A stretch of 64,000 bases of DNA, taken from the NCBI GenBank assembly GCA_030530385.1, contig JAUMVB010000001.1, positions 34,577 through 98,576 on the forward strand, given 5' to 3'. The translations under genes were made by a program, and so were the position numbers. Under the pieces are notes generated by a model, which made no database searches, had not been told where the DNA came from, and saw nothing but the letters and a program-made list of their open reading frames with translations. Shown in pieces: positions 4,339 through 42,313 of the stretch; positions within the stretch are counted from its first letter, which is position 1; each line of letters opens with the position of its first letter. This stretch comes from a bacterium (GTDB taxonomy: Bacteria; Patescibacteriota; Saccharimonadia; Saccharimonadales; Saccharimonadaceae).

Positions 4339-4373
4339 TTGATGAAACTATGAAAATTTGTTAAACTAAATAT
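4339..4373 (+). promoter_or_regulatory. Putative sigma70-type promoter: TTGATG, 17 nt, TGtTAAACT, 6 nt, ATG. It would make the transcript leaderless.
   Basis: Read directly from the sequence. There is no SD upstream of the 4374 ATG. Confidence 0.4.
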
Positions 4374-5477
4374 ATGGAAGATGATTTCGACTCAGTCAAT
4401 TTTAGCAGTGATATTTTTAATGATTTTACCCGCAATACACACAAAGTTCAAGCCCGAAGCAGCAAACGTAAAATTCCTGTAGTGATGATTTCTGGCTTTC
4501 TTGGCGCCGGAAAAACAACCCTACTAAACAATATCTTGCGAGATTGTCCAGATATGAAAATTGGCGCGATCGTAAACGATTTCGGCAAAATAAACATAGA
4601 CAATCGACTGGTTTCAGGAACTTTCAATGAAAATCAAATTGATCTCAGTAATGGTTGTATCTGTTGTATGGTTGGTGATAATGGACTTCGTGGACCGCTT
4701 GATCAGCTAGCAAACGAAAACTCGAAGTTAGACGCCATCCTAGTTGAAGCAAGCGGCGTAGCTGAGCCTTATGATCTGATGAATGTTTTACGATACGCTA
4801 ATAATAATTTTACATTTTTTGGCGGAAATATTTACCTGGTTGATGCATCTAATTTTGATTTAGCTAAACAGCAATTCCCAACTCACCTAAAAAAATGTTT
4901 CCAGTCTAGCGACATTATTCTAATCAATAAAACAGACCTAGTCCCTGATGAAAAAACCGCAGAAATTCGTAATGAAATTAGAGATTTAAATAGTCGTGCG
5001 CTAATTATTGAAAGCGATAGTTCTAGAATCGATCCGCGCATTCTTTTTGAAAATATATCATTACAAGATAAAACTATTCAAGAAACAATCGATATTGATC
5101 ATCATTCACCACATCACCACGACCATATTCACGACAAATTTCATTCAATTACTTTCGAAAGCAGCAAGCCACTCGAACCGCAAAAGTTTATTAATTTTCT
5201 TGACAATTTACCGCAAAACCTATTCCGAATGAAGGGTTTTTGCTACTTCGGGATGAAGGGTTATGAACAAAAGTATATACTTCAAATTGTAGGCAAAACT
5301 ATCGACATTAAAGCTGAAAACTGGCACGAAGGAGAGTCACCTAAGACCGAACTAGTTTTAATCGGCTCAGAAATGGATTCATCAAAAATCAACGAAGCAC
5401 TAAATCAACTCGTCGATAAAACTCCCGAGAAAATTACACCAGAAAATATGATGAATTTTGAGCGATTTATGCTTTAG
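4374..5477 (+). CDS. COG0523 (CobW/YeiR/ZigA-like) G3E-family metallochaperone GTPase
   Basis: P-loop GFLGAGKTTLL, a GCICC metal-binding motif, and the His-rich stretch HHSPHHHDHIHDKFH typical of zinc-associated COG0523 proteins. Confidence 0.8.
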   Translation: MEDDFDSVNFSSDIFNDFTRNTHKVQARSSKRKIPVVMISGFLGAGKTTLLNNILRDCPDMKIGAIVNDFGKINIDNRLVSGTFNENQIDLSNGCICCMVGDNGLRGPLDQLANENSKLDAILVEASGVAEPYDLMNVLRYANNNFTFFGGNIYLVDASNFDLAKQQFPTHLKKCFQSSDIILINKTDLVPDEKTAEIRNEIRDLNSRALIIESDSSRIDPRILFENISLQDKTIQETIDIDHHSPHHHDHIHDKFHSITFESSKPLEPQKFINFLDNLPQNLFRMKGFCYFGMKGYEQKYILQIVGKTIDIKAENWHEGESPKTELVLIGSEMDSSKINEALNQLVDKTPEKITPENMMNFERFML

Positions 5478-5497
5478 ATGATTATTTCGAGATCCAA

Positions 5498-9732: not shown

Positions 9733-9752
9733 CCCTCTATTTCCTTTTCTTT

Positions 9753-9781: not shown

Positions 9782-9822
9782 AAAGCTTGCGTTTATTATT
9801 TTTTTATGTTAAAATATCTTCA

Positions 9823-10113
9823 ATGAAAAAACAACCAAAGAAAAATATAACAAAACAAATCGCCGACGAAAACGCAAAAGGCGCACAAATCGCAATCATA
9901 GAAGAACTTTTCTACGATCTTTACCCGAACCGCTGGGAAATTTACAAAGTTAATTTCTTCCGCGGAATATCGTTTGGCTTTGGAAGCGTGATTGGAGCCA
10001 CTGTATTAATTTTTGCACTAGTTTGGTTCTTAAATTTATTTGTAAATATCCCCGGCGGAGTCGGTGATTTTGTTCAAGCCGTAATTAACGCCATGAACTC
10101 ACGCACTAAATAA
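9823..10113 (+). CDS. Small hypothetical membrane protein, with the start moved to the internal ATG
   Basis: The track ORF begins at TTG 9787. The ATG at 9823 (MKKQPKK...) is preceded by TGtTAAAAT plus 7 nt, the leaderless pattern. The C-terminus carries a hydrophobic helix. Confidence 0.5.
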   Translation: MKKQPKKNITKQIADENAKGAQIAIIEELFYDLYPNRWEIYKVNFFRGISFGFGSVIGATVLIFALVWFLNLFVNIPGGVGDFVQAVINAMNSRTK

Positions 10114-10168: not shown

Positions 10169-12922
10169 TTAATTAGTGATAGCTGGCCCACTATAGCTTT
10201 TTGATGATATATATCCACCTTCATCCGTAGCTTCCACTGAGATATTTTGTCCGCTTTTGCTAAACGCATAATCAACAGAAACAGTGTTACCAGTAGGCGT
10301 AGCAGTGCTTATCGTCGAACCATCAACTTTTATAACCACGGATTTAATCGCAAACTTCCCTTGAGAAATCGTAGCATTTATTCTATAGTTATTTCCACTA
10401 TGTAAAGAGTATGAAACATTACTAATTTCAGGCTTTGAGTCGCTACAATTATGAACATCATCCTCAGCATTGGCATCGTAGCCATCAGGAGCTATGATCG
10501 TTTTCTTTTTTGAAACAGGGTCTGTTGTTTCATAAACTGATATTTTAATTTTCGTTGACTCTGGCGTACAAGATGTAGCTTTCTTTTTCGAGATCGAATC
10601 AAATTCAATTTCTTTCGTTGATGAATTCGTCTTATTCTTACTCCACCAAGATGGGCAAAGATCATTTTTACCACCAATATTACAGTTTTGAATGCCCGAT
10701 GGACGCTTAATTTTATCGCCACTCTTCCACCCTTTAGCTATATAAATATTGTTATGCACAGATCGCATATAGTCATTCATAACTCTACGAACCGTAGAAT
10801 TATCGGCAGAGCGTAGAGATGAGCCATCATGATTTCCGCTCCAAACTCCGGTAGCTACGACAGGCGAATAACTCATCATCCAAGAATCTTTTGCGCGTCC
10901 TTTACTGTCATCTGTAGTTCCAGTCTTAGATGCAGTCCAAACACCAGGGACTACAAACCCATAGCTTCGACCTTGAGCTCCAAATACCGCAGAACGAGTC
11001 GCTGAATCCGCAAGAATATCACTGAGCATATAAGCAGCCTGCTCATCAATCACGTTAGATTGACTATCTTTCCAATCTTTTAATCTTTCTCCAGAAGAAT
11101 TTTTTACTTCAGTCACATATGTCAATGGTTTATAAACACCCCCACGTGCCAAAGATGCGTAAGCATTGGTATGTTCATCCTGACGAACAGAGCATCCACC
11201 ACCAATCGCTGCCGAAAGTCCTGCCGAAGAGCCTTGACAATAAGATTTATCGCCTAAATCTCTAGCTGTCCTAATTCCATTTTCTGCACCAACGATAGAA
11301 AGAGATTTAACCGCGCCAATATTTAATGAATTAGCTAAACTAAATCTAATTGTCACATCACCATAGAATCTATTAGTAAAATTCCTTAATTTACAACTAT
11401 TAGAATTTCCGCCACAATAAAGACTGTCTATGTTTTCGTCACGCAAGATAGTGCCTGGTGTATATACTATATCCTTTTTGTTTAATAGAGCCGCATAATC
11501 TACAATTGGTTTTATGCTTGACCCTGGATCAAGAAGCGAAGTCGCCGCATTCGTTTGGCCATAACCAGTCTTATTGTAATCAACAGAGCCAACCTGAGCT
11601 ATAACTTGCCCAGTTTGAACGTCAATAGAAGTCATTGCGATATTATCTGCGCCAGAAATATATAGGTTCTTTGATCCTGCACCTACAGCACTTTCAGCTA
11701 GCTCTTGAGCTTTTAGATCTAGTGTTGTCTTAACCGTCAAACCACCAGCCCGCACAATCTTAACACCTAATTCACTTTCTAGCTGCTTTTTAACTTCTTG
11801 AATAAAATGAGGTGCTTTAATGTTAGCATATTGATCCTGCTCTGGCTTAATCTGGCTCAAAATATCAATATTTTTCGCTTCCTTAGCCTGAGCCTCAGTT
11901 ATATACCCCATCTCAATCATGTCATTGAGGACTTTATGCTGGCGCTCGATCAAACTTTTATTATAAGCAGTATTATAAGGATTGTATACACCAGGATTAT
12001 TCGGAATAGAAGCTAGTAGGGCAGCTTCGGCTATAGTAAGATCTTTGGAGGTTTTGCCAAAATATGTTTGAGCACCAGATTCTATACCGTTTCGGCGCCC
12101 GCCATACGGAGATTCATTTAGATACAAAGCAATTATCTGATCTTTACTATACATCCTTTCCACTTCAATAGCTAAAAACATCTCTTTAATCTTTCGCGGT
12201 ATACCCTTTATTCCACGCTCTTGTGATTCATCAGAGAAGAAAACTTGCTTCACTAATTGTTGAGTGAGAGTCGATCCACCCTGAGTAGCACCTCCACGAA
12301 AATTATTAACAACAGCTCGCAAAATTCCAGACATGCTAATACCTTTATGTTTATAAAAGTCTCGATCTTCGATCGCTACAGTTGCTTTTTTAGCCCAGTC
12401 AGATATTTCTGAATCTTCAACTACTAACTTATAATCTCCGGAGCCTTTATCTTCCCAGATAAGCTCACCGTTTCGATCATAGTATTTTGAAACCGTAGTT
12501 TGAACTCGTTTAGCTAATTCGCTCGGCTTGATCTTCTGAAGGTCCTTTTGGAAATACACATAAAGACCTAAAATCACTACAAATACAATAGCTACGCCAA
12601 CTCCAGCAATCTTGAGCAGCATAATTCCGCCTTTTTTAGAGAACCAATATTTAAAAATTCTCTTGGGGTGAAAATGGTAAAAAAATCTTTTCACTGGATT
12701 TTTAGGTAGACTAGCTAAGTATTCTGCTCTTGCTCTAGCAGCAGCATCTTTTTTAATCTGCCTCTTACGAGCCAGATTAACATAAAGCCCAAGATTATTC
12801 TTCGATGAATTACTTTTATGCGACGATCGCTGTGTAGTATTCCTCGAACCTTGTTTTCGACCCGATTCCTTCTTTTTAATAGAATCAGATTGCTTACTGA
12901 ATATTTTTCGCATTTTATCCAT
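10169..12922 (-). CDS. Class A penicillin-binding protein (PBP1A; transglycosylase/transpeptidase) with a basic N-terminal tail and a ~200-aa Cys-rich/beta-rich C-terminal extension
   Basis: GT51 motifs (GGSTLTQQLVK), a transpeptidase SSIKP (SxxK) and an SKTG (KTG) motif. 917 aa. Confidence 0.85.
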   Translation of the reverse strand: MDKMRKIFSKQSDSIKKKESGRKQGSRNTTQRSSHKSNSSKNNLGLYVNLARKRQIKKDAAARARAEYLASLPKNPVKRFFYHFHPKRIFKYWFSKKGGIMLLKIAGVGVAIVFVVILGLYVYFQKDLQKIKPSELAKRVQTTVSKYYDRNGELIWEDKGSGDYKLVVEDSEISDWAKKATVAIEDRDFYKHKGISMSGILRAVVNNFRGGATQGGSTLTQQLVKQVFFSDESQERGIKGIPRKIKEMFLAIEVERMYSKDQIIALYLNESPYGGRRNGIESGAQTYFGKTSKDLTIAEAALLASIPNNPGVYNPYNTAYNKSLIERQHKVLNDMIEMGYITEAQAKEAKNIDILSQIKPEQDQYANIKAPHFIQEVKKQLESELGVKIVRAGGLTVKTTLDLKAQELAESAVGAGSKNLYISGADNIAMTSIDVQTGQVIAQVGSVDYNKTGYGQTNAATSLLDPGSSIKPIVDYAALLNKKDIVYTPGTILRDENIDSLYCGGNSNSCKLRNFTNRFYGDVTIRFSLANSLNIGAVKSLSIVGAENGIRTARDLGDKSYCQGSSAGLSAAIGGGCSVRQDEHTNAYASLARGGVYKPLTYVTEVKNSSGERLKDWKDSQSNVIDEQAAYMLSDILADSATRSAVFGAQGRSYGFVVPGVWTASKTGTTDDSKGRAKDSWMMSYSPVVATGVWSGNHDGSSLRSADNSTVRRVMNDYMRSVHNNIYIAKGWKSGDKIKRPSGIQNCNIGGKNDLCPSWWSKNKTNSSTKEIEFDSISKKKATSCTPESTKIKISVYETTDPVSKKKTIIAPDGYDANAEDDVHNCSDSKPEISNVSYSLHSGNNYRINATISQGKFAIKSVVIKVDGSTISTATPTGNTVSVDYAFSKSGQNISVEATDEGGYISSKSYSGPAITN

Positions 12923-12983
12923 AACTACTTTTAATTATACACATCTTTTTATTATTTTTCAACGCTTTTTATACTAGCGTAAA

Positions 12984-13012
12984 TTGATTTTCGCAAATAA
13001 AAATGCTAAAAT
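12984..13012 (+). promoter_or_regulatory. Putative tyrS promoter: TTGATT, 17 nt, TAAAAT
   Basis: Followed ~15 nt later by the AAAGGAGA SD and the ATG at 13038. The leader is too short for a T-box. Confidence 0.5.
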
Positions 13013-13037
13013 TAAACTTATAAATTAAAGGAGAAAA

Positions 13038-14246
13038 ATGAAACTATCAGAAGAGCTAAAATGGCGCGGATTTTGGAACCAAACTACTTTCACTGACGAA
13101 AAAATTATCGATAACACTAAATTCAAACTTTACCTCGGCACTGACCCTTCTGCTGATAGTCTACACGTTGGACACTTAGCGGTTTACATGATGGTTCGTC
13201 GCTTTATCGAATACGGTCACGAAGTTGTTCTACTCGTTGGAGGTGGAACTGGTGCTATCGGTGATATGAGAGATACCGAAGAGCGTGAACTTTTGGCTTT
13301 AGAAGAAATTACTAAAAATACCAAAGCGCTCTCTACACAAGTTTCAAAACTATTCGCTGGTAAAAACTTTGAACTAGTCAACAACTACGACTGGCTAAAA
13401 AATATCCCCCTTCTCCCCTTCTTGCGTGATATTGGTAAGAAATTTAATATGGCCGAGCTTACATCTCGTGAATTCTTTAAAGCTCGCATCAAAAATGGAA
13501 GCGGTCTAAGTTACGCCGAATTCTCATACACAATACTTCAAGGCTATGATTTTCTCCATCTTAATCGCGAAAAAGGAGTCAATCTTCAAATTGGTGGTAG
13601 CGATCAGTGGGGAAACTTGCTCTCTGGCGTAGAATTAATTCGAAAATGCGAAAACCGTGAAGCCTTCGCAATGACTGCACCGCTAGTAATAAATAAATCA
13701 ACTGGGCGAAAATTTGGTAAAAGCGAAGGTGGTGCAGTTTGGCTAGACGAAAATAAAACAAGCGTTTACAAATTTTATCAATTCTGGCTAAACTCTGATG
13801 ATGATGGAGCAATTGATTACCTAAAATTGTTTACAATGTTACCAAAAGAGCAAATTGAGAGAATTGAAGATGAGCACATAAAAGTCCCTCATTTACGACT
13901 AGCGCAAAAAACTCTTGCTCGCGAAGTTACAGATTTGATCCATGGCCAAAATCGCCGTAAAGCTGTTGAAAAAGTAAACGAAACCTTGTTCGGAAATAAC
14001 GATATCAACGCATTATCTAGCATTGAAATTGAAATTCTCGCCAGCGAGATACCTACTTCAAAAATTGGCTGCGATGTAATCTCAGCTCTCACAGAAAATA
14101 ATCTTGTAAAAAGTGCAAGTGAAGCTCGCCGACTAATTCAAAGCAATGCAATATCAATCAATGGTCAAAAAATCAAAGAAAACCAACAGATCAATAAAAT
14201 ATCATTAATTAAAAAAGGGAAAAATAGCTTCGTTCTAATTAAATAA
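13038..14246 (+). CDS. tyrS: Tyrosyl-tRNA synthetase
   Basis: HIGH-type motif (SLHVGHL), a KFGKSEG (KMSKS-like) motif and a C-terminal S4 domain. 402 aa. Confidence 0.85.
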   Translation: MKLSEELKWRGFWNQTTFTDEKIIDNTKFKLYLGTDPSADSLHVGHLAVYMMVRRFIEYGHEVVLLVGGGTGAIGDMRDTEERELLALEEITKNTKALSTQVSKLFAGKNFELVNNYDWLKNIPLLPFLRDIGKKFNMAELTSREFFKARIKNGSGLSYAEFSYTILQGYDFLHLNREKGVNLQIGGSDQWGNLLSGVELIRKCENREAFAMTAPLVINKSTGRKFGKSEGGAVWLDENKTSVYKFYQFWLNSDDDGAIDYLKLFTMLPKEQIERIEDEHIKVPHLRLAQKTLAREVTDLIHGQNRRKAVEKVNETLFGNNDINALSSIEIEILASEIPTSKIGCDVISALTENNLVKSASEARRLIQSNAISINGQKIKENQQINKISLIKKGKNSFVLIK

Positions 14247-14328: not shown

Positions 14329-14670
14329 TTAAACTTTTTTTCCGAAACCTTTTTTTGCCCCTTCATATGTGTTAAGGGCTCGTTTTTGCAACTTGCCAGC
14401 TTCAATCTTCGCTTCCTCAACGGCTGCTTCAGTCTTAACTTTTGCCTCTTCGACAAATTCGCTAGTTTTTTCCTTAACTTCATCAATAACCTTTTCGGTA
14501 TTTTCTGCAGCTTCACTAGTTTTTTCTTTAACTACTTTTCCAACTTCTTCAGCCTTTTCTTTAAGTTCTTTTCGGGTTTCTTTGCCACTTTTTGGAGCAG
14601 TCAAAATTCCTGCAACCGCACCGACAGCCGCACCAAATAATAACCCTAAACCAAATTTACCTTTACTCAC
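14329..14670 (-). CDS. YtxH-like (general-stress-type) small protein with an N-terminal membrane anchor and a charged KE-rich helix
   Basis: GLGLLFGAAVGAVAGIL, then a K/E-rich repeat region. It uses a GTG start with an AAAGGAGAAAA SD. Confidence 0.6.
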   Translation of the reverse strand: MSKGKFGLGLLFGAAVGAVAGILTAPKSGKETRKELKEKAEEVGKVVKEKTSEAAENTEKVIDEVKEKTSEFVEEAKVKTEAAVEEAKIEAGKLQKRALNTYEGAKKGFGKKV

Positions 14671-14923
14671 TTTTTTCTCCTTTACCTTTAAATTTTTTAA
14701 AAATACTCATCACCGACTTAGCAATAATAATCGGCGAAGTAATTTGCGCAATATTTTGTGTCATCTCATCGACGTTTTTTGCAACATTTTGAATTCGTTC
14801 TGTCACGTCACCAATCTGATGAGTCACCCGAATGATTAAAATGAAACAAATGATTCCGAGGACGATAAAAATCGCAAGCGCAATAGATAGAATTACGACT
14901 AAAATTTCCGCAGCCGAACTCAT
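14663..14923 (-). CDS. DUF948-like small membrane protein, paired with the YtxH protein
   Basis: An N-terminal TM helix followed by a soluble helical region. An AAAAGGAGAAAA SD precedes it, and its 8-nt overlap with the downstream gene indicates coupling. Confidence 0.55.
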   Translation of the reverse strand: MSSAAEILVVILSIALAIFIVLGIICFILIIRVTHQIGDVTERIQNVAKNVDEMTQNIAQITSPIIIAKSVMSIFKKFKGKGEKSE

Positions 14924-14976
14924 TTTTCTCCTTTTTATTTTATGTTTTTATTTTTGATTTTTTCAAATCTGTTTGT

Positions 14977-15005
14977 ATTCTACCATAAAATAATTCTTAT
15001 GTCAA
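14977..15005 (-). promoter_or_regulatory. Near-consensus promoter for the DUF948/YtxH operon: TTGACA, 17 nt, TAGAAT (minus strand)
   Basis: The reverse complement of 14977-15005 reads TTGACAtaagaattattttatggTAGAAT. Confidence 0.55.
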
Positions 15006-16690: not shown

Positions 16691-17100
16691 ATTGCTCCTA
16701 AATCTTTCAAAGCTTGTTTAAAACTATTCATTGCTCGGCGAGTTTGATCAAAATTAATTTGTGCATCATTCTCATGCGCAACCACATTTCGAAGTTTGTG
16801 GGCGTGCCAAATTGAATTCGGGCTTGAAAATTTATCTTTCGAATTTTTCAGCCGCTCACCCATCGTTTGGCCAGAAATTCGAAGCTCCCGCATCGCTGTA
16901 TCAACAAGTTTATCGGCATTAATTAACGCCAAGTGCCAAGTTGCAGGTTCATCTTTTTTGATTGAATTTTCTATAACTAACCAATCACGCTGAAACTTCT
17001 CTTTATCAAGTTGAATCTCATGCGGCTTAGTTAAATTAATCGCAACAAATAACAAAACCGCACAAATTAAAATTGCGACTGCCGGAAAAATTAATTCCAT
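16687..17100 (-). CDS. Hypothetical membrane-anchored protein inserted between gatA and gatB
   Basis: An N-terminal TM helix. Its ATG overlaps the gatA stop (TAATG) and its stop overlaps the gatB start (ATGA), so it is translationally coupled on both sides. Confidence 0.55.
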   Translation of the reverse strand: MELIFPAVAILICAVLLFVAINLTKPHEIQLDKEKFQRDWLVIENSIKKDEPATWHLALINADKLVDTAMRELRISGQTMGERLKNSKDKFSSPNSIWHAHKLRNVVAHENDAQINFDQTRRAMNSFKQALKDLGAI

Positions 17101-18801: not shown

Positions 18802-18868
18802 ACACTTAAGTATATCACTTTTCAAAAGATTTTTAAAATAAAACTCTAAAGAATAGGAGTTTTTAGAG

Positions 18869-21062: not shown

Positions 21063-21068
21063 TATGTT

Positions 21069-28199: not shown

Positions 28200-28205
28200 A
28201 AATAA

Positions 28206-28233
28206 ATTATACATAAATTTTAAGAAAAATCAA
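28206..28233 (-). promoter_or_regulatory. Putative rel promoter: TTGATT, 16 nt, TATAAT, then a leaderless ATG at 28199
   Basis: Reverse-complement reading gives gagaaTTGATTtttcttaaaatttatgTATAATttatttATG. Confidence 0.45.
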
Positions 28234-30622: not shown

Positions 30623-31975
30623 TTATTGTAAATATTTAATTAAAGCCTCGCGCAAATCACGCACAGCCACAATGAAGTTATTTTTTGAAGCAGTTTTTGG
30701 CGCAAGCGCACTAGTAAATCCAAGTTTTTTCGCTTCGGCGATGCGCCTTTCCGCCTGAACGACAGAACGAATTTCACCACCAAGCCCAATCTCGCCAAAA
30801 ACTACCACACCATCCGAAAGTTTGCGCTTCGCTGCCGCCGACGCAATCGCCATTACTACCGCCAAATCTGCCGCCTGATCGGAAAGCTTAATCCCACCAA
30901 CAACATTCACAAAGACATCTTTATCGGAAAGATCAAGCTTCGTGCGTTGCTGAAGAACCGCAATCAAAAGATTTAATCGATTTAGGTCGAAGCCGCTCGC
31001 GGTTCGTTTTGGATAACCAAAATTTGACGGCGAAACTAACGCTTGGATTTCCACCAAGATTGGACGCGTCCCCTCAAGAGTTGCCAAAATTATAGAGCCA
31101 TCCGTATTTTGTCGCTCAGCAAGGAGAGCGGCTGATGGATTTTCAACAATCTCAAGGCCATTCTCGCTCATTTCAAAAATAGCAGCTTCTGTCGTCGAGC
31201 CGTATCTATTTTTAATCGCTCGCACAACTTTAAAACCACCATAGCGGTCACCTTCAAAATTCAAAACTACATCAACTAGATGTTCTAATGTTTTTGGGCC
31301 CGCGATCGAACCTTCTTTTGTAATGTGGCCAACTAACACGACTGCAGTGCCGGATTTTTTTGCCGCCTGAATAATTAGATTAGATGAATTAGTAATTTGC
31401 GAAACACTGCCCGCAGCGCTAGATATTTCGCTCATCGCTAATGTCTGAATCGAATCAACTACAACTAAATCAAATTTACCGTTCAATATTGTCTCCGCAA
31501 TATCATCGGCAGAAGTTGAACTAGCAAATTTTAAGTTTGGCGATTTTTCGGCATTCAGACGCTTCGCTCGGCCTGCCACCTGCTCAGCCGACTCCTCCCC
31601 GGATACATACAAAACTCTTTTTTGTTGAGCGATACACGACGAAACCTGCATCAAGAGAGTGCTCTTACCAATTCCTGGCTGACCTGCAATCAATAAAACA
31701 CCAGCCGGCAAAATTCCGCCGCCCAAAACATTATCTAGATCAGCAATCCCTGTCGAGATTCGATCTTGCTTTTTGCTTGAAATAATATCATCTAAACTTT
31801 GGGTTTGTAAAATTTTACCATTTCCGATACTTTTTGCAACTGCGTTTTTACCAATAGATTCTTCAACTTCTTCGACTAGAGTATTCCAGCTACCGCAATT
31901 TTCACATTTTCCCATCCATTTTGGGTAGCTAGAACCACAATTCTGACATATAAATTTTGTTTTTAGTTTGGCCAC
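30623..31975 (-). CDS. radA: DNA repair protein RadA/Sms
   Basis: A C4 zinc finger (CQNCGS...CENCGSW), Walker A GQPGIGKSTL, the KNRYG motif and a Lon-like C-terminus. Confidence 0.9.
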   Translation of the reverse strand: MAKLKTKFICQNCGSSYPKWMGKCENCGSWNTLVEEVEESIGKNAVAKSIGNGKILQTQSLDDIISSKKQDRISTGIADLDNVLGGGILPAGVLLIAGQPGIGKSTLLMQVSSCIAQQKRVLYVSGEESAEQVAGRAKRLNAEKSPNLKFASSTSADDIAETILNGKFDLVVVDSIQTLAMSEISSAAGSVSQITNSSNLIIQAAKKSGTAVVLVGHITKEGSIAGPKTLEHLVDVVLNFEGDRYGGFKVVRAIKNRYGSTTEAAIFEMSENGLEIVENPSAALLAERQNTDGSIILATLEGTRPILVEIQALVSPSNFGYPKRTASGFDLNRLNLLIAVLQQRTKLDLSDKDVFVNVVGGIKLSDQAADLAVVMAIASAAAKRKLSDGVVVFGEIGLGGEIRSVVQAERRIAEAKKLGFTSALAPKTASKNNFIVAVRDLREALIKYLQ

Positions 31976-32006
31976 AACATTAATTTTATCATATAAATAT
32001 TAATAT

Positions 32007-33005
32007 TTAAAGTGATTTAATGCCATCAACCTTTTCGATTTTTGAGTTTAGACTGTCATAAAGCCTCTGGATCTGTTTAGAGATTCGTTGAAGTTCTACA
32101 ACTTTTGAATTGTAATCTGTAACTTTTGAATTTATCTGATTGCGGTATTGCTCCATAGAATTACTGCGCTCAACCAAACTCGAACGATCTGCATTAAATG
32201 CACCCTGACTATGATAGTAGCCACTTTTTGCTCGAGAATTAAATAGAAGAATAGCCATATTTAAAGATTGAAGCTTATTTGAATAATCTGTCGTTTCCTG
32301 TTTAATCTCAGCTTTTAACTTTTTCAATTCTCTATCTAAACTTTTTGCGCGATCCTCCAAGCTCTTGAATTTGGCCTTATACCGAGTATTCATAGCTACA
32401 ATATCATTACGATTTTTAAAATACTTAGCATAATGAACCTCTAACTCACTAGAAAGACCAGAGAATTCAGTACCCAATATAGAATGAAGCTCGTTTACAC
32501 GCTCACCAGGCTCAGTTATAGCATAATTAGCTATGGTTTTTTCGAGCTCTGGAGTTTTTATTTTCTTGTAGTTTTCTTCTATCTCCTTGCTTAATCTGTC
32601 TCGCTCGGATTTGCTTGCTCTATTCCATACCGCATGCAATAATTCATGCGCAGCAGTTACTTCTTTAACGCCATCAAGTTCAGAGTTCTCGACATCAAAA
32701 ATCGAAATTTTATCATCATTATAACAACCTAAAATTGTGCTTTTTTCGACTAATTTGGAACAACTAGAATTAAAATCTTGACCTGATAAAACTCGTGGAT
32801 TTGTAGCATAAAAAATTGTCCTAGCGCGATCTGTTAAATTAATTTTTGAAGTAATTTGAGTTATTTTTTCACTCGGCTTAAAATTTTGTGCCTTCAAAAA
32901 ATCGCTAAAATCCTGAGCATAAAAAATGCCAAAAATAGCAATAACTACCACCAATGATACCAACGACGCACTGATTATAATTGATATTTTGTTAATATTT
33001 TTCAT
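32007..33005 (-). CDS. Membrane-anchored HExxH-motif protein (putative metalloprotease) with a C-terminal coiled coil
   Basis: A TM helix, then AAHELLHAVW, then a long heptad-like region. The start was placed at ATG 33005 (MKNINK), which is preceded by TGcTATAAT plus 7 nt. The track start (33029) is a GTG. Confidence 0.5.
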   Translation of the reverse strand: MKNINKISIIISASLVSLVVVIAIFGIFYAQDFSDFLKAQNFKPSEKITQITSKINLTDRARTIFYATNPRVLSGQDFNSSCSKLVEKSTILGCYNDDKISIFDVENSELDGVKEVTAAHELLHAVWNRASKSERDRLSKEIEENYKKIKTPELEKTIANYAITEPGERVNELHSILGTEFSGLSSELEVHYAKYFKNRNDIVAMNTRYKAKFKSLEDRAKSLDRELKKLKAEIKQETTDYSNKLQSLNMAILLFNSRAKSGYYHSQGAFNADRSSLVERSNSMEQYRNQINSKVTDYNSKVVELQRISKQIQRLYDSLNSKIEKVDGIKSL

Positions 33006-33012
33006 ACTTAAA

Positions 33013-33070
33013 ATTATAGCACACATCACACAGTGCTACAATTATATTCCAAAAATGATTATGCTATAAT
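33013..33070. promoter_or_regulatory. Pair of divergent, identical extended -10 elements (TGCTATAAT), ~40 bp apart, each 6-7 nt from its ATG
   Basis: Plus strand: tgctataat at ~33062-33070, then gtagct, then ATG 33077. Minus strand: the reverse complement of attatagca at ~33013-33021, then 7 nt, then ATG 33005. Confidence 0.5.
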
Positions 33071-33076
33071 GTAGCT

Positions 33077-33739
33077 ATGTCGAGTAGCGAAAAAACTTTC
33101 CGAAAACGCCGTATTTTGAGCTTAATAATAATTGCATTTTTATCAATTATTGCAGTATTTTCTAATCCAGATTTTTGGAGCAAGAAAAGTCCAAATCAGC
33201 AAACATCACAAATCTCACAAGATCTAAATTCGCTCCAAGTTAAAGGTCGCGCGCCAAAAACAGGTTATTCACGCGATCAATTTGGTAAAGGCTGGGCTAA
33301 AGATTCTAACGGTTGTGATACTCGAAACCGTATTTTAAAACGTGATCTAAAAGAAGCGCAAGAAAATTCAAAATGCCAAATTATAAGCGGAATATTAGAT
33401 GATCCATACACGGGAAAACAAATTATTTTCTCTAGAGATAAAGCTTCCGCCGTTCAAATTGACCATGTAGTTGCACTTTCTGATGCTTGGCAAAAAGGCG
33501 CACAACAAATCTCTACCGAAGAGAGAAAACAACTCGCCAATGACCCACTAAATCTGCTCGCATCAGATGGGTCAGCCAACCAACAGAAAGGTGATAGCGA
33601 CGCTGCAACTTGGTTACCTTCAAACAAAGTATTTCGCTGCGAATATATCAAACGTCAAATTTCAGTTAAGAAAAAATATAGACTCTGGATAACCCAAGCC
33701 GAAAAATCCGCCATGCAAACAGTCCTCGCAAGCTGCTAA
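33077..33739 (+). CDS. Secreted/anchored DUF1524-type HNH nuclease (GmrSD C-terminal-domain-like extracellular DNase)
   Basis: An N-terminal signal anchor. GYSRDQFGKGWAKDSNGCDTRNRIL...IDHVVALSDAW...NQQKGDSDAATWLP matches the DUF1524/HNH family, which is common as secreted nucleases in Actinobacteria. Confidence 0.7.
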   Translation: MSSSEKTFRKRRILSLIIIAFLSIIAVFSNPDFWSKKSPNQQTSQISQDLNSLQVKGRAPKTGYSRDQFGKGWAKDSNGCDTRNRILKRDLKEAQENSKCQIISGILDDPYTGKQIIFSRDKASAVQIDHVVALSDAWQKGAQQISTEERKQLANDPLNLLASDGSANQQKGDSDAATWLPSNKVFRCEYIKRQISVKKKYRLWITQAEKSAMQTVLASC

Positions 33740-34955: not shown

Positions 34956-35646
34956 CAAAACCCTTCTTTAATTCACGAATAATATTTTTATCACTATCAC
35001 TAACCATAAGAGATTCAATTATTTTTTGACAAGCCTTTTGAAAAGTCCTCGATTTTAAATTATTCCGCCGCAAAAAAGATAAAGTTTCATCTGGAAATTT
35101 TACATAAATAGCTGAAATCGCCCAGGCAACGCCCATTTCCGAATAATGACCATCACTTTTCATATTATTAAATTTTTCAAAAATTTGCTCCAGATAGTCC
35201 TTCTTTATAAAATTACTAATCACCGACACAACGGCAAAACGAGATTCGAATTCATCTTCTGAAGCAAAATATGACTGAAGAAATTTCCAAAATTCTAACC
35301 TGTTAACTTCCGAAATCTTCAAACTACCACAAAAACTATCACACACCGACCAATTATCAATCTTTGGTATAAATTTTTTAATCAATTCCAGTTTTTCTGA
35401 AAAATCACAATCAGCTCCAGCTATGACCATGCCCTCAAGCATTGTTTGTTCAAAATATTGATTGTCGTTATCTCGAATAAATTCCCGCCAATTCGTTTTA
35501 ATAATCTTTTTTGAAATTTTACGCAAAGCCGGCAACCTTACACCTAAGATATTATTAACGCCCGGCAATAGTCTCATCGAAAATTGACGATATTTTTCTT
35601 CAGCCAAAACTCTGAGTTCTTGTTTTATATCTTTATTTTTCATCAC
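34936..35646 (-). CDS. DNA alkylation repair protein (AlkD/AlkC-like HEAT-repeat glycosylase family)
   Basis: Similar in length and helical-repeat pattern to pfam08713 proteins. This is a moderate-confidence call. Confidence 0.5.
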   Translation of the reverse strand: MMKNKDIKQELRVLAEEKYRQFSMRLLPGVNNILGVRLPALRKISKKIIKTNWREFIRDNDNQYFEQTMLEGMVIAGADCDFSEKLELIKKFIPKIDNWSVCDSFCGSLKISEVNRLEFWKFLQSYFASEDEFESRFAVVSVISNFIKKDYLEQIFEKFNNMKSDGHYSEMGVAWAISAIYVKFPDETLSFLRRNNLKSRTFQKACQKIIESLMVSDSDKNIIRELKKGFDDSRDR

Positions 35647-35753
35647 TTATTTTTATTATAGTAAGAAAGTATATCTTAAGCAAGTCATAAAGCCATCTCA
35701 ATTACATATATAAAAAATCACCCAGAGCTATGGGCGATTTTATAATTCAAAGA

Positions 35754-36268: not shown

Positions 36269-37903
36269 CTAAATTACGCGATTGATTTCCTCGATAGTTG
36301 TCTCGCCACGAAGAGCCATAACAATACCCTGCTGAACTAGTGTTAACATACCGTCTGCACGAGCTTGAGCCTCAATTGCTTCGGTAGAAATTACACCACG
36401 TTCACCGCGCAAAAAAGCTTGGATATTTTCACCAACAATCATTTGTTCCATCAAAACAATTCGCCCTTTATATCCAAACGGATTACCCGTACTTGGAACT
36501 GACCTCCATAGTCTAAAATCTCCAGATATGTCCTGAGGTATTTTTTTGCTCGGAACATTTTTCATTACGTCACGAATCCATTGTTTTAAAGCCTCACTCG
36601 GCACATATTCTTGCTTGTTATCATCTAGACGACGTACTAACCGCTGCGCAATAAGCAGTCTAATCGCACTAGAAAATATTGGATTGTGACCAATCATATC
36701 AATCATTCGCGAAAAGGCTGCTGAAGTTGAGTTGGCGTGAAAGCTAGAAAGCACTAGATGCCCTGTAATTGAAGCTTGAATCGCAGTCCTCGCAGTATCA
36801 ACATCACGAATCTCGCCTACCATTACGACATCTGGATCAAGGCGCAAAACAGACCGAAGCCCATCCGCAAAACTTGCACCATGAGTCGTATCAATTGGAA
36901 TCTGAGAAATTCCAGCAATACCATACTCGATCGGATCTTCAAGAGTAATAATCTTTTTATCGGTTGTATTTAAAGCGTTTAAAATCGAATATAAAGTCGT
37001 TGACTTACCAGATCCCGTTGGACCAACCATCAATACCATACCTCGTGGATGTGAAATAATCTCATCAATTTCGGCGCGTTCTTTAGGTTCGATACCTAGT
37101 AAATCCAAATTTAGCATTGATTCATCAAAGTTGAATAGTCGTAATACAGCATCCATACCATACATAGTTGGAACAGTTTCAACACGCAGATTCAATAAGT
37201 GAGAACCACCATCTCGATAAATATCTTTTTGAATGTGACCCGACTGTGAAGTTTTTGAAGCGCTTGATACACCTGCGCGCGAAGAAAGTTCACCCATGAT
37301 CACCCTATAACGATCACGAGAAAGTTCTGCAACAGGATGAAGAGCACCATCAACACGCATCCTGATACGTATTGATTCACGCTGATTCTCAATATGAATA
37401 TCACTAGCTCCAAGACGATCAGCTTGATCAATTAAATAATCGAAAACTTTATCGCTAGCTACACCCGCCAAAGTTTGCGACACTTGGCTCAATGTAGCAC
37501 TATCACCTTCGCCAGCGATAGTGATATTGTCATAAATAACTTCCTTAGGAGGGTCGTAGCGACGCATTATTTTCTTCCAGGCGGACTCAGAAATCAAATA
37601 AAAATCAATTTGCTTACCTTTGTCTTCATATGACTTTTTCAGCTTTTGGATTACCGACCTTGGAGTTTGTGAAGTAATCATCACTCTCCATGGCTGATTC
37701 TCTTCGGCATTTCCTTCCTGAAGTGGAGCAAGTTTTGCCGCATACATTTGTTCATTCGAAAAAATATCTTTAACTAAAGGAAAAATATCTTCAAACTCTC
37801 GCGTATCCAAATAGACTAATCCTAAAATATCCGCCCGTTTAGCCGTTGCGCGCTCTTCATCATCACGTCTTCGCTGTTGAATTTTCTGTTCATCCATTAG
37901 CAC
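36269..37903 (-). CDS. pilB: Type IV pilus / type II secretion assembly ATPase (PilB/GspE family)
   Basis: An N-terminal GSPII_E domain, Walker A GPTGSGKSTTL, and Asp/His boxes. Confidence 0.8.
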   Translation of the reverse strand: MLMDEQKIQQRRRDDEERATAKRADILGLVYLDTREFEDIFPLVKDIFSNEQMYAAKLAPLQEGNAEENQPWRVMITSQTPRSVIQKLKKSYEDKGKQIDFYLISESAWKKIMRRYDPPKEVIYDNITIAGEGDSATLSQVSQTLAGVASDKVFDYLIDQADRLGASDIHIENQRESIRIRMRVDGALHPVAELSRDRYRVIMGELSSRAGVSSASKTSQSGHIQKDIYRDGGSHLLNLRVETVPTMYGMDAVLRLFNFDESMLNLDLLGIEPKERAEIDEIISHPRGMVLMVGPTGSGKSTTLYSILNALNTTDKKIITLEDPIEYGIAGISQIPIDTTHGASFADGLRSVLRLDPDVVMVGEIRDVDTARTAIQASITGHLVLSSFHANSTSAAFSRMIDMIGHNPIFSSAIRLLIAQRLVRRLDDNKQEYVPSEALKQWIRDVMKNVPSKKIPQDISGDFRLWRSVPSTGNPFGYKGRIVLMEQMIVGENIQAFLRGERGVISTEAIEAQARADGMLTLVQQGIVMALRGETTIEEINRVI

Positions 37904-37940
37904 AATTTTAGCACAACCAGTTTATTTTTTCAATCAAAGA

Positions 37941-37956
37941 TGTTAAAGTATATGTA
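37941..37956 (+). promoter_or_regulatory. Extended -10 (TGtTAAAGT) followed 7 nt later by the ATG (leaderless pattern)
   Basis: Read directly. There is no SD before 37957. Confidence 0.35.
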
Positions 37957-38514
37957 ATGAAAAACCCTAATTCTCTGGAAAATAAAAATAGAAAACAATA
38001 TCGAGAAATCATTGTCTTAGCACACAATATTCGCTCAACCCACAACATCGGCTCAATCCTCAGAACTAGCGAGGGCTTTGGTGTATCTAGAGTTATTTTT
38101 AGTGGATATTCGCCCTTTCCAATCTTAGATAATGAAAATTTTCAAGAAACAAATCGTCTCCCCCATATCGCACAAAAAATTACCACGCAGATTCATAAAA
38201 CAGCTCTTGGTGCAGAAAAAATTATCCAGTGTGAAATATCAAAAAACATCACAGAAAAAATCGCCAAATTAAAATCTGAAGGGTTTGAAATTATAGCGCT
38301 AGAACAGTCTATAGAATCAATTAAAATACCAGATTTTTCCACAGATAAATGCGCAAAAATAGCACTCCTTCTAGGAGAAGAAGTGGATGGTATAGAAGAA
38401 CGCCTACTCGCTCTTTGCGACAAACATCTTGAGATTCCCATGTTTGGACAAAAAGAAAGCTTTAACGTATCGGTTGCAGCAGGGATTGCTCTTTATAAAA
38501 TTGCTTGCGAATAA
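37957..38514 (+). CDS. SpoU/TrmH-family (SPOUT) RNA 2'-O-methyltransferase
   Basis: IIVLAHNIRSTHNIGSILRTSEGFGV is the SpoU methylase motif. 185 aa, about TrmH/TrmL size. Confidence 0.7.
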   Translation: MKNPNSLENKNRKQYREIIVLAHNIRSTHNIGSILRTSEGFGVSRVIFSGYSPFPILDNENFQETNRLPHIAQKITTQIHKTALGAEKIIQCEISKNITEKIAKLKSEGFEIIALEQSIESIKIPDFSTDKCAKIALLLGEEVDGIEERLLALCDKHLEIPMFGQKESFNVSVAAGIALYKIACE

Positions 38515-38520
38515 TTATAC

Positions 38521-39057: not shown

Positions 39058-40364
39058 TATACTTCATCCTCTTCAAAATTTGAAAAAGTTTCAAAAAAAT
39101 CGTTCTTCTCACAAACCCACTTCTCATCTTGGCGGACTAATTTCGAAATATCGCTTTTATCTTTTAGCAAAATTTTTGTAGCTTCTTCAAGGAAAATTCC
39201 ACCTTGAGATCCTTTCAATAAAATGGCGCAACCTTTCTCCATAACTTTTCGCGCAAAAGTGGCCGCCTCTATAGCATTTGCACAAGTTTTTACCTGACAG
39301 CCTCTATTGCGAGCTGCAGCAGCAAGAAACTGGTTTGCTTTATCCCCAACTGTAATAACCCAAGACAAAGATAGTGGATCGCAAAAATTACCAATTTTTT
39401 GGTGTTCAACCGCAGAAATAGCGCCCAATTCGTTCATATCACCCAAAATAGCTATACGCGATGGTACATGGAGATTATAAAGCGTTCGAAGAGCCGCCTC
39501 CGCAGCCGCCGGACTCGAATTATAGGTATCATCAATCAGAATAGAATCTTCTACTCCGCGCAGAAAATTCATCCTTCCAAATACAGGTTGGATTTTTGCA
39601 AGGCCAGAAATAATCTCATCGGAAGCCAAGCCCATCTTCGCTGCCACAGCTACCGCAGAGGTTACAGGCAAAAGTGAATGCTCTCCAAAGACTTTAATCT
39701 TGACTGGAATCTGACCGAATTCAGCTGTATTCATTTTTCCTATATAACCCTCAACAAGGTTTAAATCATCAACTTCAAAACTATACTCTGCCGAAACAGT
39801 TGTACCATAAGTTGAAAAATTAGGATTGGTGATTAAATTTGAATATTCTGAGCTAATAGCATCCCTATTCAATATTGCAATTTTTGCAAAATTCGCTGCA
39901 GACAATTCCTCTCGAGCAACAGCATTCATATTTTCGAAAAACTCCATATGCTCAGGTGTCACCGCTGTAATAACAGCAATATCGGGTAAAAGATAGTCGC
40001 TAAATCTCTCAATATCACCCGGCCGATCTGTTCCTAATTCTTGAATAATCACTTGTGGTTCATTCTCAAATGGAGATTTGATTCTTTTTCGAGCAGCCTT
40101 AAAGACTTTATGCCACTCCCAAAAACTACGCGGATTACCAGGATAATCAATCCCTAAAATAGCAATTGGTGCGCTAAGATGAGTGTTATGATTACCCGTA
40201 TGCAACCTAACTCGATATTTTTCGTTCAAAAGTGTGGCAATTGCTAATTTAGAACTAGTTTTTCCAACCGACCCTGCCACTACAATCAGTTTTATATTCT
40301 GGTGCTGCTTGAAATATTTCTTAACATATTTTTCAAGCTTTTTAGTAATTCGCTTCTTAAACAT
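39057..40364 (-). CDS. murF: Mur ligase family protein, MurF-like (UDP-MurNAc-tripeptide--D-Ala-D-Ala ligase), apparently lacking the N-terminal domain 1
   Basis: The P-loop VVAGSVGKTSSK begins at residue ~31. LIDDTYNSSP matches the MurF DDSYNANP motif. A C-terminal Mur ligase domain is present. Confidence 0.55.
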   Translation of the reverse strand: MFKKRITKKLEKYVKKYFKQHQNIKLIVVAGSVGKTSSKLAIATLLNEKYRVRLHTGNHNTHLSAPIAILGIDYPGNPRSFWEWHKVFKAARKRIKSPFENEPQVIIQELGTDRPGDIERFSDYLLPDIAVITAVTPEHMEFFENMNAVAREELSAANFAKIAILNRDAISSEYSNLITNPNFSTYGTTVSAEYSFEVDDLNLVEGYIGKMNTAEFGQIPVKIKVFGEHSLLPVTSAVAVAAKMGLASDEIISGLAKIQPVFGRMNFLRGVEDSILIDDTYNSSPAAAEAALRTLYNLHVPSRIAILGDMNELGAISAVEHQKIGNFCDPLSLSWVITVGDKANQFLAAAARNRGCQVKTCANAIEAATFARKVMEKGCAILLKGSQGGIFLEEATKILLKDKSDISKLVRQDEKWVCEKNDFFETFSNFEEDEV

Positions 40365-40574
40365 AATCTTTTTAAATTATACTAAATAACCGGCTCCTTT
40401 TCAAGAGTCGGCTATTTTGCTGATGTGCGCCCACCCAGGGGCGTTTGTTTTATTTGTTTTTATTTAATAAGTGCTATTTAGGAGATGAATAAGAACAATC
40501 GCCCTATTGTTAGCACATCAACTATGCTCTTATAATAGCATAAGTATTTTAATATAGCAATAGTTTTTGATGAA

Positions 40575-41387: not shown

Positions 41388-41482
41388 TTCTACCTTTCTT
41401 TATCAAAATCCTGTTCTTATAGATTTAAATTATAGCATAGCTTAAGCATTTATAAAAGTACTATTTACTATTACATAAAAAA

Positions 41483-41497
41483 TGTTATAATTAAGAA
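41483..41497 (+). promoter_or_regulatory. Extended -10 (TGtTATAAT) followed 6 nt later by the ATG (leaderless pattern)
   Basis: Read directly. There is no SD. Confidence 0.4.
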
Positions 41498-42313
41498 ATG
41501 AACTTAAAAGCTTGGCGGAAAAACCTACAGCATCATTTCGTCCAAATCAATAATATAAAAATTTCAATATATAAAAACATCCAAAAAAACAAACCGACCG
41601 CTGTGCTTCTCCATGGATTTGGAGGTAATTATTTCGGGCTTACGCCTCTAGGTTATGAGCTCTCTAAAAAATATTCAATAATCATATGTGATCTACCAGC
41701 GCATGGTAAAAGTTCACTCCACTCTTTCAGCAGTATCGATACTTACCATTCTTTTTATCAAGATCTTATCTCTGAACTTAAAAAAATAAACGAGATTGGT
41801 CTTGTAGTAGCTCATTCATTTGGATGCTATCTAGCAAGTGACCCAAAAATATCCAACCAAATACCTACCGTGCTACTAAATCCAGTCTATGATCCTAGTA
41901 GATCTTTCTTGTTTGGAATGAAGTCCTCTTATAGCTCTAGCCCTTTAATGATATTGTCAAACATACCGATATTTTCACCAATTAAAGCTGTTACACTTCA
42001 AAAAACATGGTCACTAGAAGCCAGTAAAAATATCTATCAAAATATATTTGCTTGTCAAAATTCAATTAAAAAATTACTTGCGCAGAAAAAAACTATACCA
42101 ATAGCACTAAACAATAACGCTTTCAAAAATAAAAATAATGTCAAATTAGTAATTATAGCAGATAACGACACAACCGTTAAACCTTTCCAAGAAAAGTCCT
42201 TTCGAACATTTTTTCCGAGTGCAGATTTTAAGATCATAGAAAAAAGTGGTCATTTACTGCCAATGGAAAAACCACGAGAAATTGCTAAAATTATTTTCGA
42301 AAATATTCAATAA
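41498..42313 (+). CDS. Alpha/beta-fold hydrolase
   Basis: An HGFGG oxyanion region, the nucleophile elbow VAHSFG, and a C-terminal His (GHLLPMEKP). Confidence 0.65.
   Translation: MNLKAWRKNLQHHFVQINNIKISIYKNIQKNKPTAVLLHGFGGNYFGLTPLGYELSKKYSIIICDLPAHGKSSLHSFSSIDTYHSFYQDLISELKKINEIGLVVAHSFGCYLASDPKISNQIPTVLLNPVYDPSRSFLFGMKSSYSSSPLMILSNIPIFSPIKAVTLQKTWSLEASKNIYQNIFACQNSIKKLLAQKKTIPIALNNNAFKNKNNVKLVIIADNDTTVKPFQEKSFRTFFPSADFKIIEKSGHLLPMEKPREIAKIIFENIQ

Follow-up and report, generated by a model that had tools for sequence, protein, structure and literature searches.

We analysed a 64,000-nt stretch of bacterial DNA (hereafter the window; GenBank assembly GCA_030530385.1, contig JAUMVB010000001.1, positions 34,577 to 98,576) in which many genes begin a few nucleotides behind a TAnAAT-like hexamer that resembles the −10 element of a bacterial promoter. 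Its sequence makes it very probable that many transcription units of this organism are expressed as leaderless or near-leaderless mRNAs from sigma70-type promoters that abut the start codon. The window is AT-rich (37% GC). In a scan with one genome per species, its UvrB was 92% identical to that of uncultured Ca. Saccharimonas metagenome-assembled genomes (MAGs), 87% to that of Ca. Nanogingivalis and 75% to that of Nanosynbacter; sequence comparison thus identifies the organism as a member of the Saccharibacteria (TM7; Patescibacteria/Candidate Phyla Radiation, CPR) with a small genome.

Gene starts and upstream elements in the window

The initial annotation had pointed to nine gene starts with a common layout, in which a promoter-like hexamer, often TG-extended and often accompanied by a TTG-type −35, stands 6–7 nt before an ATG that lacks a Shine-Dalgarno (SD) sequence. 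Reading the 60 nt 5′ of each listed start bore this out: with the spacing N (or d) taken as the number of nucleotides between the end of the −10 hexamer and the start codon, a TAnnnT hexamer ends 6–7 nt before the ATG in all nine, and in each the gap is free of GGAG-like sequence. Seven of the nine carry a strict TGn, and at 21062 and 28199 the TG abuts the hexamer directly; a TTGnnn lies at 16–17 nt in six, the remaining three −35 hexamers being weak (TTATAT, TTTATT and TTTACT). The protein labels given to these genes (COG0523/CobW-like, UvrB, RelA/SpoT, SpoU-type methyltransferase and alpha/beta hydrolase) also hold. When all long open reading frames (ORFs) of the window were tabulated with every candidate start, genes being selected as the longest ORF, the earlier observation proved to be understated: further N6–7 and N8–11 starts exist beyond the nine.

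The nine are described here by −35 hexamer, spacer, −10 hexamer with any preceding triplet, spacing and start codon. The COG0523/CobW-like GTPase gene (4339–4376, plus strand) has TTGATG, 17 nt, TGT TAAACT and N6 to ATG 4374, which is the earliest start in its ORF; the conserved KIPV...GAGKT domain has already begun where the next possible start occurs. The gene for a DUF5665 small membrane protein (9787–9825, plus) has TTGCGT, 17 nt, TGT TAAAAT and N7 to ATG 9823, and the alternative start TTG 9787 is the −35 itself. At uvrB (21060–21097, minus) we find TTGTGA, 17 nt, (TTG) TAGAAT and N6 to ATG 21062, and at the gene for a 145-aa membrane protein with five Cys (25324–25361, plus) TTGATT, 17 nt, TGA TAATAT and N6 to ATG 25359. 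The RelA/SpoT gene, rel (28197–28233, minus), has TTGATT, a spacer of 16 nt, (ATG) TATAAT and N6 to ATG 28199, with an alternative ATG 28214 inside the −10. A membrane protein gene with an HExxH motif, here HELLH (33003–33041, minus), has TTGTAG, 17 nt, TGC TATAAT and N7 to ATG 33005; the gene for a GmrSD_C/HNH nuclease (33042–33079, plus) has TTATAT, 17 nt, TGC TATAAT and N6 to ATG 33077. The list is completed by the SpoU-type methyltransferase gene (37921–37959, plus; TTTATT, 17 nt, TGT TAAAGT, N7, ATG 37957) and the alpha/beta hydrolase gene (41464–41500, plus; TTTACT, 16 nt, TGT TATAAT, N6, ATG 41498).

Five N6–7 starts are added to these, all on the minus strand. The gatC gene (18799–18837; TTTAAA, 17 nt, TGA TATACT, N7, ATG 18801) encodes 97 aa and heads a gatC-gatA-ORF137-gatB unit, and radA (31973–32011; TTTAAA, 17 nt, TGA TAAAAT, N7), which lies 31 nt from its upstream gene, begins with GTG 31975. 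A PilB/GspE-type ATPase gene (37895–37933) has TTGAAA, 17 nt, TGC TAAAAT and N7 to ATG 37897, gltX (43794–43830) has TTGAAA, 16 nt, TGC TAATAT and N6 to ATG 43796, and eno (46394–46431) has TTGAAT, 17 nt, TAAAAT and N6 to ATG 46396.

Two divergent gene pairs fall within this set. Between 33005 and 33077, the 71-nt intergenic region is filled exactly by the two promoters, whose −35 hexamers abut (33036–33041 and 33042–33047). In the 59-nt region between 37897 and 37957 the promoters are interdigitated, the −35 of the minus-strand gene lying at 37933–37928 and that of the plus-strand gene at 37921–37926. These pairs are about as compact as divergent expression signals get.

Promoter statistics, spacing and conservation

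Across the 21 candidate sites, a TTG stands upstream of the hexamer at a spacer of 17 in 12 and at a spacer of 16 in two (P ~4e-14), and none was found at spacers of 10–15 or 18–20. TGn directly precedes the hexamer at 11 of the 14 N6–7 sites. The −35 consensus is TTGAnn and the whole promoter reads TTGAnn, 17 bp, often TGn, and a −10 of TAnAAT or TATACT; a −35 signal is also visible clade-wide (T.40, T.44, G.36 at −23 to −21). The elements of a sigma70-type extended −10 promoter are present, with TG at −15/−14, TAnnnT, and TTGnnn at 16–18 bp, and GGAG, GAGG and AGGA are all missing from the discriminators of the N6–8 genes. These data support the conclusion that the hexamers belong to complete sigma70-type promoters and are not ribosome sites.

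A count of the motif against shuffled sequence, which the initial annotation had proposed as a control, came out above the shuffles when run over the whole window, with a mild excess of about twofold (7 vs 2.9 and 7 vs 3.0). Since whole-window counts at this level are not decisive, we replaced them by statistics anchored on gene starts. Among the 1765 ATGs of the window, 14 match TGnTAnnnT-N6/7-ATG and 10 of these are gene starts, a rate of 0.20 at gene starts vs 0.0023 at other ATGs (Fisher p = 1.2e-13); the other four are located within coding regions, a number that shuffled sequence would also give.

For comparison with relatives, a UvrB scan with one genome per species was joined by a metagenome scan with GltX that gave 80 further loci; the comparison covers ~120 related loci. 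The 1.83 Mb of Saccharibacteria loci contain 924 unique TGnTAnA[AC]T sites, and 220 of them have, at d = 6–9, an ATG or GTG that opens an ORF of ≥80 codons. No case falls at d = 5; from d = 6 onward the counts are 84, 59, 40, 37, 35, 15 and 10, after which they fall to a baseline of ~2–4. Loci from outside the Saccharibacteria have six such cases among 213 sites and no distance peak, and the d = 6–9 peak is also present in relatives with 45–56% GC. The hard lower limit of 6 nt is what would be expected if the start codon must sit within a transcript that begins ~7 nt past the −10. In the d = 6 cases the base preceding the start codon is a pyrimidine in 83%, so that the pyrimidine/purine (Y/R) start step falls on the A of the ATG. 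Where d is 9–12, a T|A step is conserved at +6/+7 or +7/+8, counted from the hexamer, which predicts leaders of 3–5 nt.

The window has seven starts of this longer type (N8–11), all on the minus strand, and those at N9–N11 fit this geometry: 12922 and 55931 have gT|Agtt-ATG, 60288 has t|Act-ATG and 50174 has t|Gtt-ATG. The PBP1A gene (12920–12962) has TTGAAA, 17 nt, TATAAT and N11 to ATG 12922, with 11 of 12 consensus matches and a predicted leader of 4 nt. A murF-like ligase gene (40362–40404) likewise has TTGAAA, 17 nt, TATAAT and N11, to ATG 40364, and pheS (55929–55971), which is followed by an SD-led ORF at 54911 and by pheT, has TGG TAGAAT and N11 to ATG 55931, again with a predicted 4-nt leader. 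At N9 stand the gene for a PEGA-domain protein (50172–50212; TGG TATAAT, ATG 50174) and der (engA; 60286–60326; TTGAAG, 17 nt, TGG TATAAT, ATG 60288), each with a predicted leader of 3 nt, as well as a response-regulator gene (62693–62733; TTGGGA, 17 nt, TATAAT, ATG 62695) with a predicted start at t|Aat. An AGGAG in the discriminator of the last is probably not a functional SD, because it lies upstream of the predicted transcription start. The start of the DNA-alkylation-repair gene (35644–35683; TTGCTT, 17 nt, TATAAT) is ambiguous between GTG 35646 at N8 and ATG 35643 at N11. PBP1A (12920–12934, minus) and pheS (55929–55943, minus) have the same short predicted leader and the same context, AAGT|AGTT-ATGGA, which may be a preferred 4-nt leader sequence.

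A −10-like hexamer 6–9 nt before the first ATG or GTG is found at 26% of long ORFs in the window and at 23% in Saccharibacteria loci; the control frequencies are 4% in other phyla and 1.4–3% at internal ATG/GTG codons. SD-only ORFs number 32 of 57 in the window, and by count of predicted promoters there are 21 leaderless or near-leaderless units vs ~13–16 leadered ones. From these sequence counts, about one quarter of the genes and roughly half of the transcription units are predicted to be leaderless or near-leaderless.

The genes that the initial annotation had set beside the nine as strongly SD-led are so indeed, with AAGGAG or AGGAGG 6–10 nt before rnj 4168, gap 25248, tyrS 13038, 28308 and 60404. 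The same promoter consensus lies 20–78 nt upstream of SD-led first genes (those for RNase J, NusA, GAPDH, TyrS, SodA and L19), and because of this the spacing from −10 to start codon is bimodal, 6–11 nt or at least 20 nt. At tyrS (12984–13040, plus) TTGATT, 17 nt and TGC TAAAAT are followed by 25 nt with AAAGGAG and then ATG 13038, and at the GAPDH gene gap (25246–25293, minus) TGC TAAAAT is followed by 36 nt with AAAGGAG and then ATG 25248. An SD 4-mer peak lies 4–10 nt upstream of the other, non-leaderless genes. Operon-internal genes (gatA, gatB, pheT and others) have an SD and lack the start-proximal promoter motif, and the same arrangement of leaderless head and SD-led followers is seen where gatC precedes gatA, a 137-aa ORF and gatB, and where radA precedes two SD-led genes. 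The proposal of two initiation modes in one genome is thus upheld, with unit-first leaderless genes beside SD-led downstream genes and leadered SD first genes. The use of SD pairing is inferred from AGGAGG enrichment alone; a 16S 3′ end for an anti-SD check was looked for in the fetched related loci and not found.

Orthologs were compared by tblastn of all window proteins against the related loci, with the start picked from the alignment position and not from the motif. The leaderless signature recurs in 42 of 44 orthologs of uvrB, 51 of 58 of gltX, 28 of 31 of gatC, 20 of 24 of rel and 8 of 9 of der, and in all orthologs of the pilB-like (4/4), spoU-like (3/3) and alpha/beta hydrolase (4/4) genes. 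Orthologs of SD-led genes have it in 10 of 283 cases (3.5%), including 0/20 for gatA, 0/27 for gatB and 0/25 for gap. The longer spacings are also retained: N10–12 is kept in 5/5 murF-like orthologs, and orthologs of the PEGA protein (50174) have a −10 at 5–9 nt in 14 of 24 and at 10–12 nt in eight more. Orthologs of the response regulator (62695) are mixed, with 7/20 leaderless and 11/20 SD-led, and the DUF5665 gene (9823) is leaderless only in the window and its closest relative (L001). Across the 44 uvrB orthologs (GC 36–52%) TAnAAT or TAnACT stands 5–8 nt before the first in-frame start in nearly all, with flanks that cannot be aligned, and the start is GTG in 20 of them. A TTG is found among leaderless starts once in 24 in the 50174 family and nowhere else.

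Two genes show the layout changing with the position of the start or of the gene in its operon. In some relatives the N-terminus of gltX is extended by 14 codons and the promoter shifts along with the ATG. The rpiB gene (23781–24230, minus) is operon-internal with an SD (taagagga) in the window lineage; in ~20 other Saccharibacteria lineages (L005–L048) it heads a unit and has a conserved cTTGCA-17-gcTTATACT-N6/7-ATG, so that, as the sequences indicate, its initiation mode switches with operon position. The mode switching of rpiB and the tracking of shifted N-termini by gltX promoters show the architecture to be under selection and not a relic, and the sequence comparisons show purifying selection on it throughout the class.

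Some loci from the related set stand out on their own account. Two Clostridia loci carry a leaderless-looking uvrB, TGgTATAAT-N6-ATG in Ca. Copromorpha (L050) and TGaTATACT-N6-ATG in a member of the Christensenellaceae (L062), and all genes next to uvrB in both use an SD; uvrB may be prone to this architecture beyond the Saccharibacteria. A locus of 32% GC (L044) has the Saccharibacteria uvrB-gatCAB gene order with leaderless uvrB and gatC, and probably comes from a Saccharibacteria-related organism. Another, labelled Verrucomicrobiia (L011), encodes a UvrB 74% identical to that of the window behind a leaderless start, and was probably mis-binned or mislabelled.

Predicted leaderless initiation and competing explanations

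On a motif whose anatomy, positional statistics, restriction to unit-first genes and gene-specific conservation are documented above, we base the following scheme. RNA polymerase would start 7–8 nt after the −10, so that at a spacing of 6–7 the transcript would begin at the first base (A or G) of the start codon and at a spacing of 9–12 it would begin 3–5 nt before it; we infer these 5′ ends from the established geometry of RNA polymerase. Because such a transcript leaves no room for an SD, the first cistron would be initiated on a 5′-terminal AUG or GUG, by 70S ribosomes or by ribosomes loaded with IF2 and formylmethionyl-tRNA (fMet-tRNA), by analogy with other bacteria. Downstream cistrons, and first genes with leaders of 20–80 nt, would use AGGAGG-type SD pairing. 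Leaderless mRNAs of Mycobacterium, Deinococcus and E. coli initiate on a 5′-terminal start codon without SD pairing, and by comparison with them SD-independent initiation on a 5′-terminal AUG or GUG would be expected here too. Shell and colleagues reportedly found in 2015 that both ATG and GTG serve as 5′-terminal start codons in mycobacteria; the frequent GTG starts would, by this analogy, agree with mycobacteria rather than with E. coli. The near-absence of TTG among leaderless starts fits a purine requirement at +1.

The spacing rule also re-calls starts, as had been claimed: the mechanical starts TTG 9787, ATG 28214, GTG 33029/ATG 33026, GTG 37903 and TTG 18891 all fall inside predicted promoters. 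At nine of the 14 N6–7 starts, the ORF offers no earlier start codon. The first residue that aligns to the family profile at its first positions is residue 5 in UvrB, 3 in GltX, 6 in RelA/SpoT, 4 in GatC, 1 in RadA, 5 in enolase and 6 in Der; GatC residue 4, RadA residue 1 and enolase residue 5 are each matched to position 1 of the profile, and in RelA/SpoT residue 6 is matched to position 7. Where they can be tested (GatC and RelA/SpoT), the profiles support the shorter, re-called forms.

Several findings weigh against leaderless expression as the general explanation of these sites. A generic two-hexamer promoter scan of the window did not rise above shuffles (54 vs 55.7) and only its top-scoring hits were useful; because such a scan is no better than shuffles in AT-rich DNA, the specificity of the signal rests on position and conservation and not on motif counts. 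The related loci include many close relatives and are not independent, only exact duplicates of upstream sequence having been removed. At five of the 14 N6–7 starts (9823, 18801, 28199, 33005 and 37897), an upstream in-frame alternative exists, and there the motif-adjacent codon was preferred. The starts of radA, gltX and uvrB lie 31, 38 and 45 nt behind a co-directional gene, and read-through transcripts with an internal SD-less AUG may also exist at these three. The only set of TM7x start sites found, 188 sites deduced from RNA-seq in a 2025 promoter survey, is described as variable in the distance from −10 to start, and the survey does not comment on leader length (PMC12641261).

The tight co-directional gaps, which have no room for a terminator, bear most directly on a mixed mode in which the start-proximal promoters are secondary and protein is made mostly from polycistronic mRNAs by re-initiating or scanning 70S ribosomes. 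Not only radA, gltX and uvrB but also gatC and eno follow a co-directional gene; however, about eight of the 14 N6–7 starts have a divergent neighbor (4374, 9823, 25359, 28199, 33005/33077, 37897/37957 and 41498), so that no upstream co-directional transcript is available to them, and the tight gaps, too, have kept complete promoters, −35 included. We consider the mixed mode unlikely. The same closeness of some genes to a co-directional neighbor (31–45 nt) makes upstream transcription plausible and would also suit the idea that TAnAAT is itself transcribed, serving on leadered mRNAs as an A/U-rich, non-SD element that recruits ribosomes (an S1-type enhancer, group B-like); the element is A/T-rich and stands at the position of a ribosome-binding site (RBS). 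Yet a TTG phased at 16–17 bp and a TG at −15/−14 have no role in an RBS, the same consensus recurs 20–78 nt upstream of SD-led genes, and the 6-nt lower limit and the Y/R step 7–8 nt past the hexamer fit RNA polymerase and not ribosome binding. Operon-internal genes, moreover, lack the element and carry a canonical SD instead, unlike the Bacteroidota-like genomes of GeneMarkS-2 group B, in which one non-SD motif stands before all genes, internal ones included. This makes a ribosome-recruiting role very improbable.

A slightly smaller chance still attaches to the view that the promoters are real and the start codons mis-called, with translation from a downstream in-frame codon behind a normal 5′ untranslated region (UTR). 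The proteins at 25359, 33005 and 50174 have no family match to anchor the N-terminus and leave most space for it, but profile alignments begin 1–6 residues from the proposed start in UvrB, GltX, RelA/SpoT, GatC, RadA, enolase, Der and the response regulator, and the conserved CobW-like domain starts before the next candidate codon. Downstream candidates also lack a preceding SD, and an ATG or GTG at d = 6–9 is kept as the first in-frame start across orthologs. That the whole pattern arose by chance, from AT-rich sequence between genes that lie close together, finds its support in the mild whole-window excess and in generic promoter-like sites as common as in shuffled sequence; it is effectively refuted by the difference between gene starts and other ATGs (0.20 vs 0.0023), by a positional peak that persists at 45–56% GC, and by the gene-by-gene conservation of the layout despite diverged flanks. 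Leaderless or near-leaderless expression from start-abutting promoters therefore stands as our preferred reading, and the earlier proposal is supported overall.

Known leaderless systems, implications and other features

The predicted architecture matches the leaderless type that GeneMarkS-2 calls "group C," known from Actinobacteria and Deinococcus. In group C a Pribnow box lies 6–8 nt from the start of operon-first genes and an RBS model applies to the others, and the main text of the study names only two groups where the type is frequent, Actinobacteria (90%) and Deinococcus-Thermus (97%), with low figures for Firmicutes (3.4%) and Proteobacteria (5.6%) (PMC6028130). In the Saccharibacteria sequences, likewise, a −10 stands ~6–8 nt before unit-first starts with no SD between, the remaining genes have an SD, and the fraction of units so arranged is substantial. 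Group C Actinobacteria (Mycobacterium tuberculosis, M. smegmatis, Streptomyces and Corynebacterium; Lomsadze et al., 2018, PMC6028130; Cortes, 2013 and Shell, 2015, cited there) are alike in the position of the Pribnow box, in an SD that is missing from leaderless first genes and present in internal and leadered ones, and in having 25–50% of units leaderless. They differ in GC content (35–56%, low to medium, in Saccharibacteria vs >60%), and unlike theirs, Saccharibacteria promoters are usually TGn-extended with a recognizable TTG −35; Saccharibacteria, as CPR/Patescibacteria, also differ in their sub-megabase genomes and reduced ribosomes. [quoted passage not shown] Archaeal leaderless genes (group D) are similar in that operon-first genes lack a 5′ UTR and their promoter element keeps a constant distance to the start codon; in archaea this element is a TATA box or B recognition element (BRE) ~26 nt upstream used by the archaeal polymerase, whereas that of Saccharibacteria is a bacterial −35/−10.

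The lambda cI mRNA made from PRM and the tetR mRNA of Tn1721 are leaderless, with a 5′-terminal AUG and a −10 ~7 nt upstream; such mRNAs are rare in their genomes and AUG-dependent in E. coli. In contrast, the predicted Saccharibacteria mode applies to about one gene in four and extends to GTG starts (radA, and 20/44 uvrB orthologs). The two Clostridia uvrB genes resemble the sporadic lambda cI/tetR type.

Literature pairing "leaderless" with Saccharibacteria, TM7, Patescibacteria, CPR, Nanosynbacter or epibiont gave only incidental co-occurrences in searchable full text (title citations of GeneMarkS-2, leaderless secretion, YchF), and none of these concerned leaderless mRNA in Saccharibacteria or CPR. 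A CPR ribosome study reports loss of the anti-SD in some Parcubacteria and does not discuss leaderless mRNAs (PMC9297842), and the TM7x transcriptome paper, in its bioRxiv version, does not analyse transcription starts or UTRs. Within the searchable literature the mode thus seems undescribed for Saccharibacteria, and papers beyond it are possible.

We see an even balance of arguments for and against a broader claim: that Saccharibacteria, and possibly the wider CPR/Patescibacteria, are a third major bacterial lineage, beside Actinobacteria and Deinococcus-Thermus, in which leaderless initiation of the first cistron is a principal mode, fixed gene by gene over class-level divergence, routinely using GUG as well as AUG, and exploited for genome compaction through abutting or interdigitated divergent promoters and the absence of a UTR. 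If this is true, the reduced CPR ribosome (with a short bS1 and missing uL30 and other proteins) would be naturally proficient in leaderless initiation, abundant leaderless initiation would be extended to a low-GC, ultrasmall and ribosome-reduced lineage, and these bacteria would be a natural setting in which to study the ribosomal requirements for initiation on a 5′-terminal AUG or GUG. The Actinobacteria hosts of Saccharibacteria are also rich in leaderless genes, which may or may not be coincidence.

There are practical consequences as well. If the prediction is right, many public Saccharibacteria protein N-termini would be mis-annotated; starts in Saccharibacteria MAGs could be re-called as the first ATG or GTG 6–12 nt after TGnTAnAAT, as for the five mechanical ORF starts of the window that lie inside promoters. 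The NCBI annotation pipeline may already model leaderless starts, because it uses GeneMarkS-2. Saccharibacteria have become transformable only recently, and the expression cassettes borrow whole native promoter regions (PMC10633639). For the many genes that apparently have no leader, such borrowing would need one to be added, and the compact consensus could serve as a minimal portable expression signal for these newly tractable bacteria.

Some other features of the window deserve mention. The 137-aa ORF between gatA and gatB (16687–17100, minus) has its own SD and recurs in 24 related loci. Two small SD-led genes at 14329–15005 (minus), a DUF948-like one of 86 aa and a YtxH-like one of 113 aa, are absent from the longest-ORF gene selection; they are preceded by the best promoter match of the window, TTGACA-17-TGgTAGAAT at 15005–14977, with a leader of ~53 nt. 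In the RNase J homologue (2090–4168, minus), ~129 residues precede the point where the family profile sets in; they are either an extension specific to the lineage or a sign that the start should be checked, though ATG 4168 has a good AAGGAG. The sole RNA gene found in the window is a tRNA-Leu(CAA) at 47923–48009 (plus), for which leaderless-type transcription was considered and dropped, there being no −10 at 6–8 nt. GC skew is strongly negative throughout and ~80% of the genes are on the minus strand, which places the window within one replichore.

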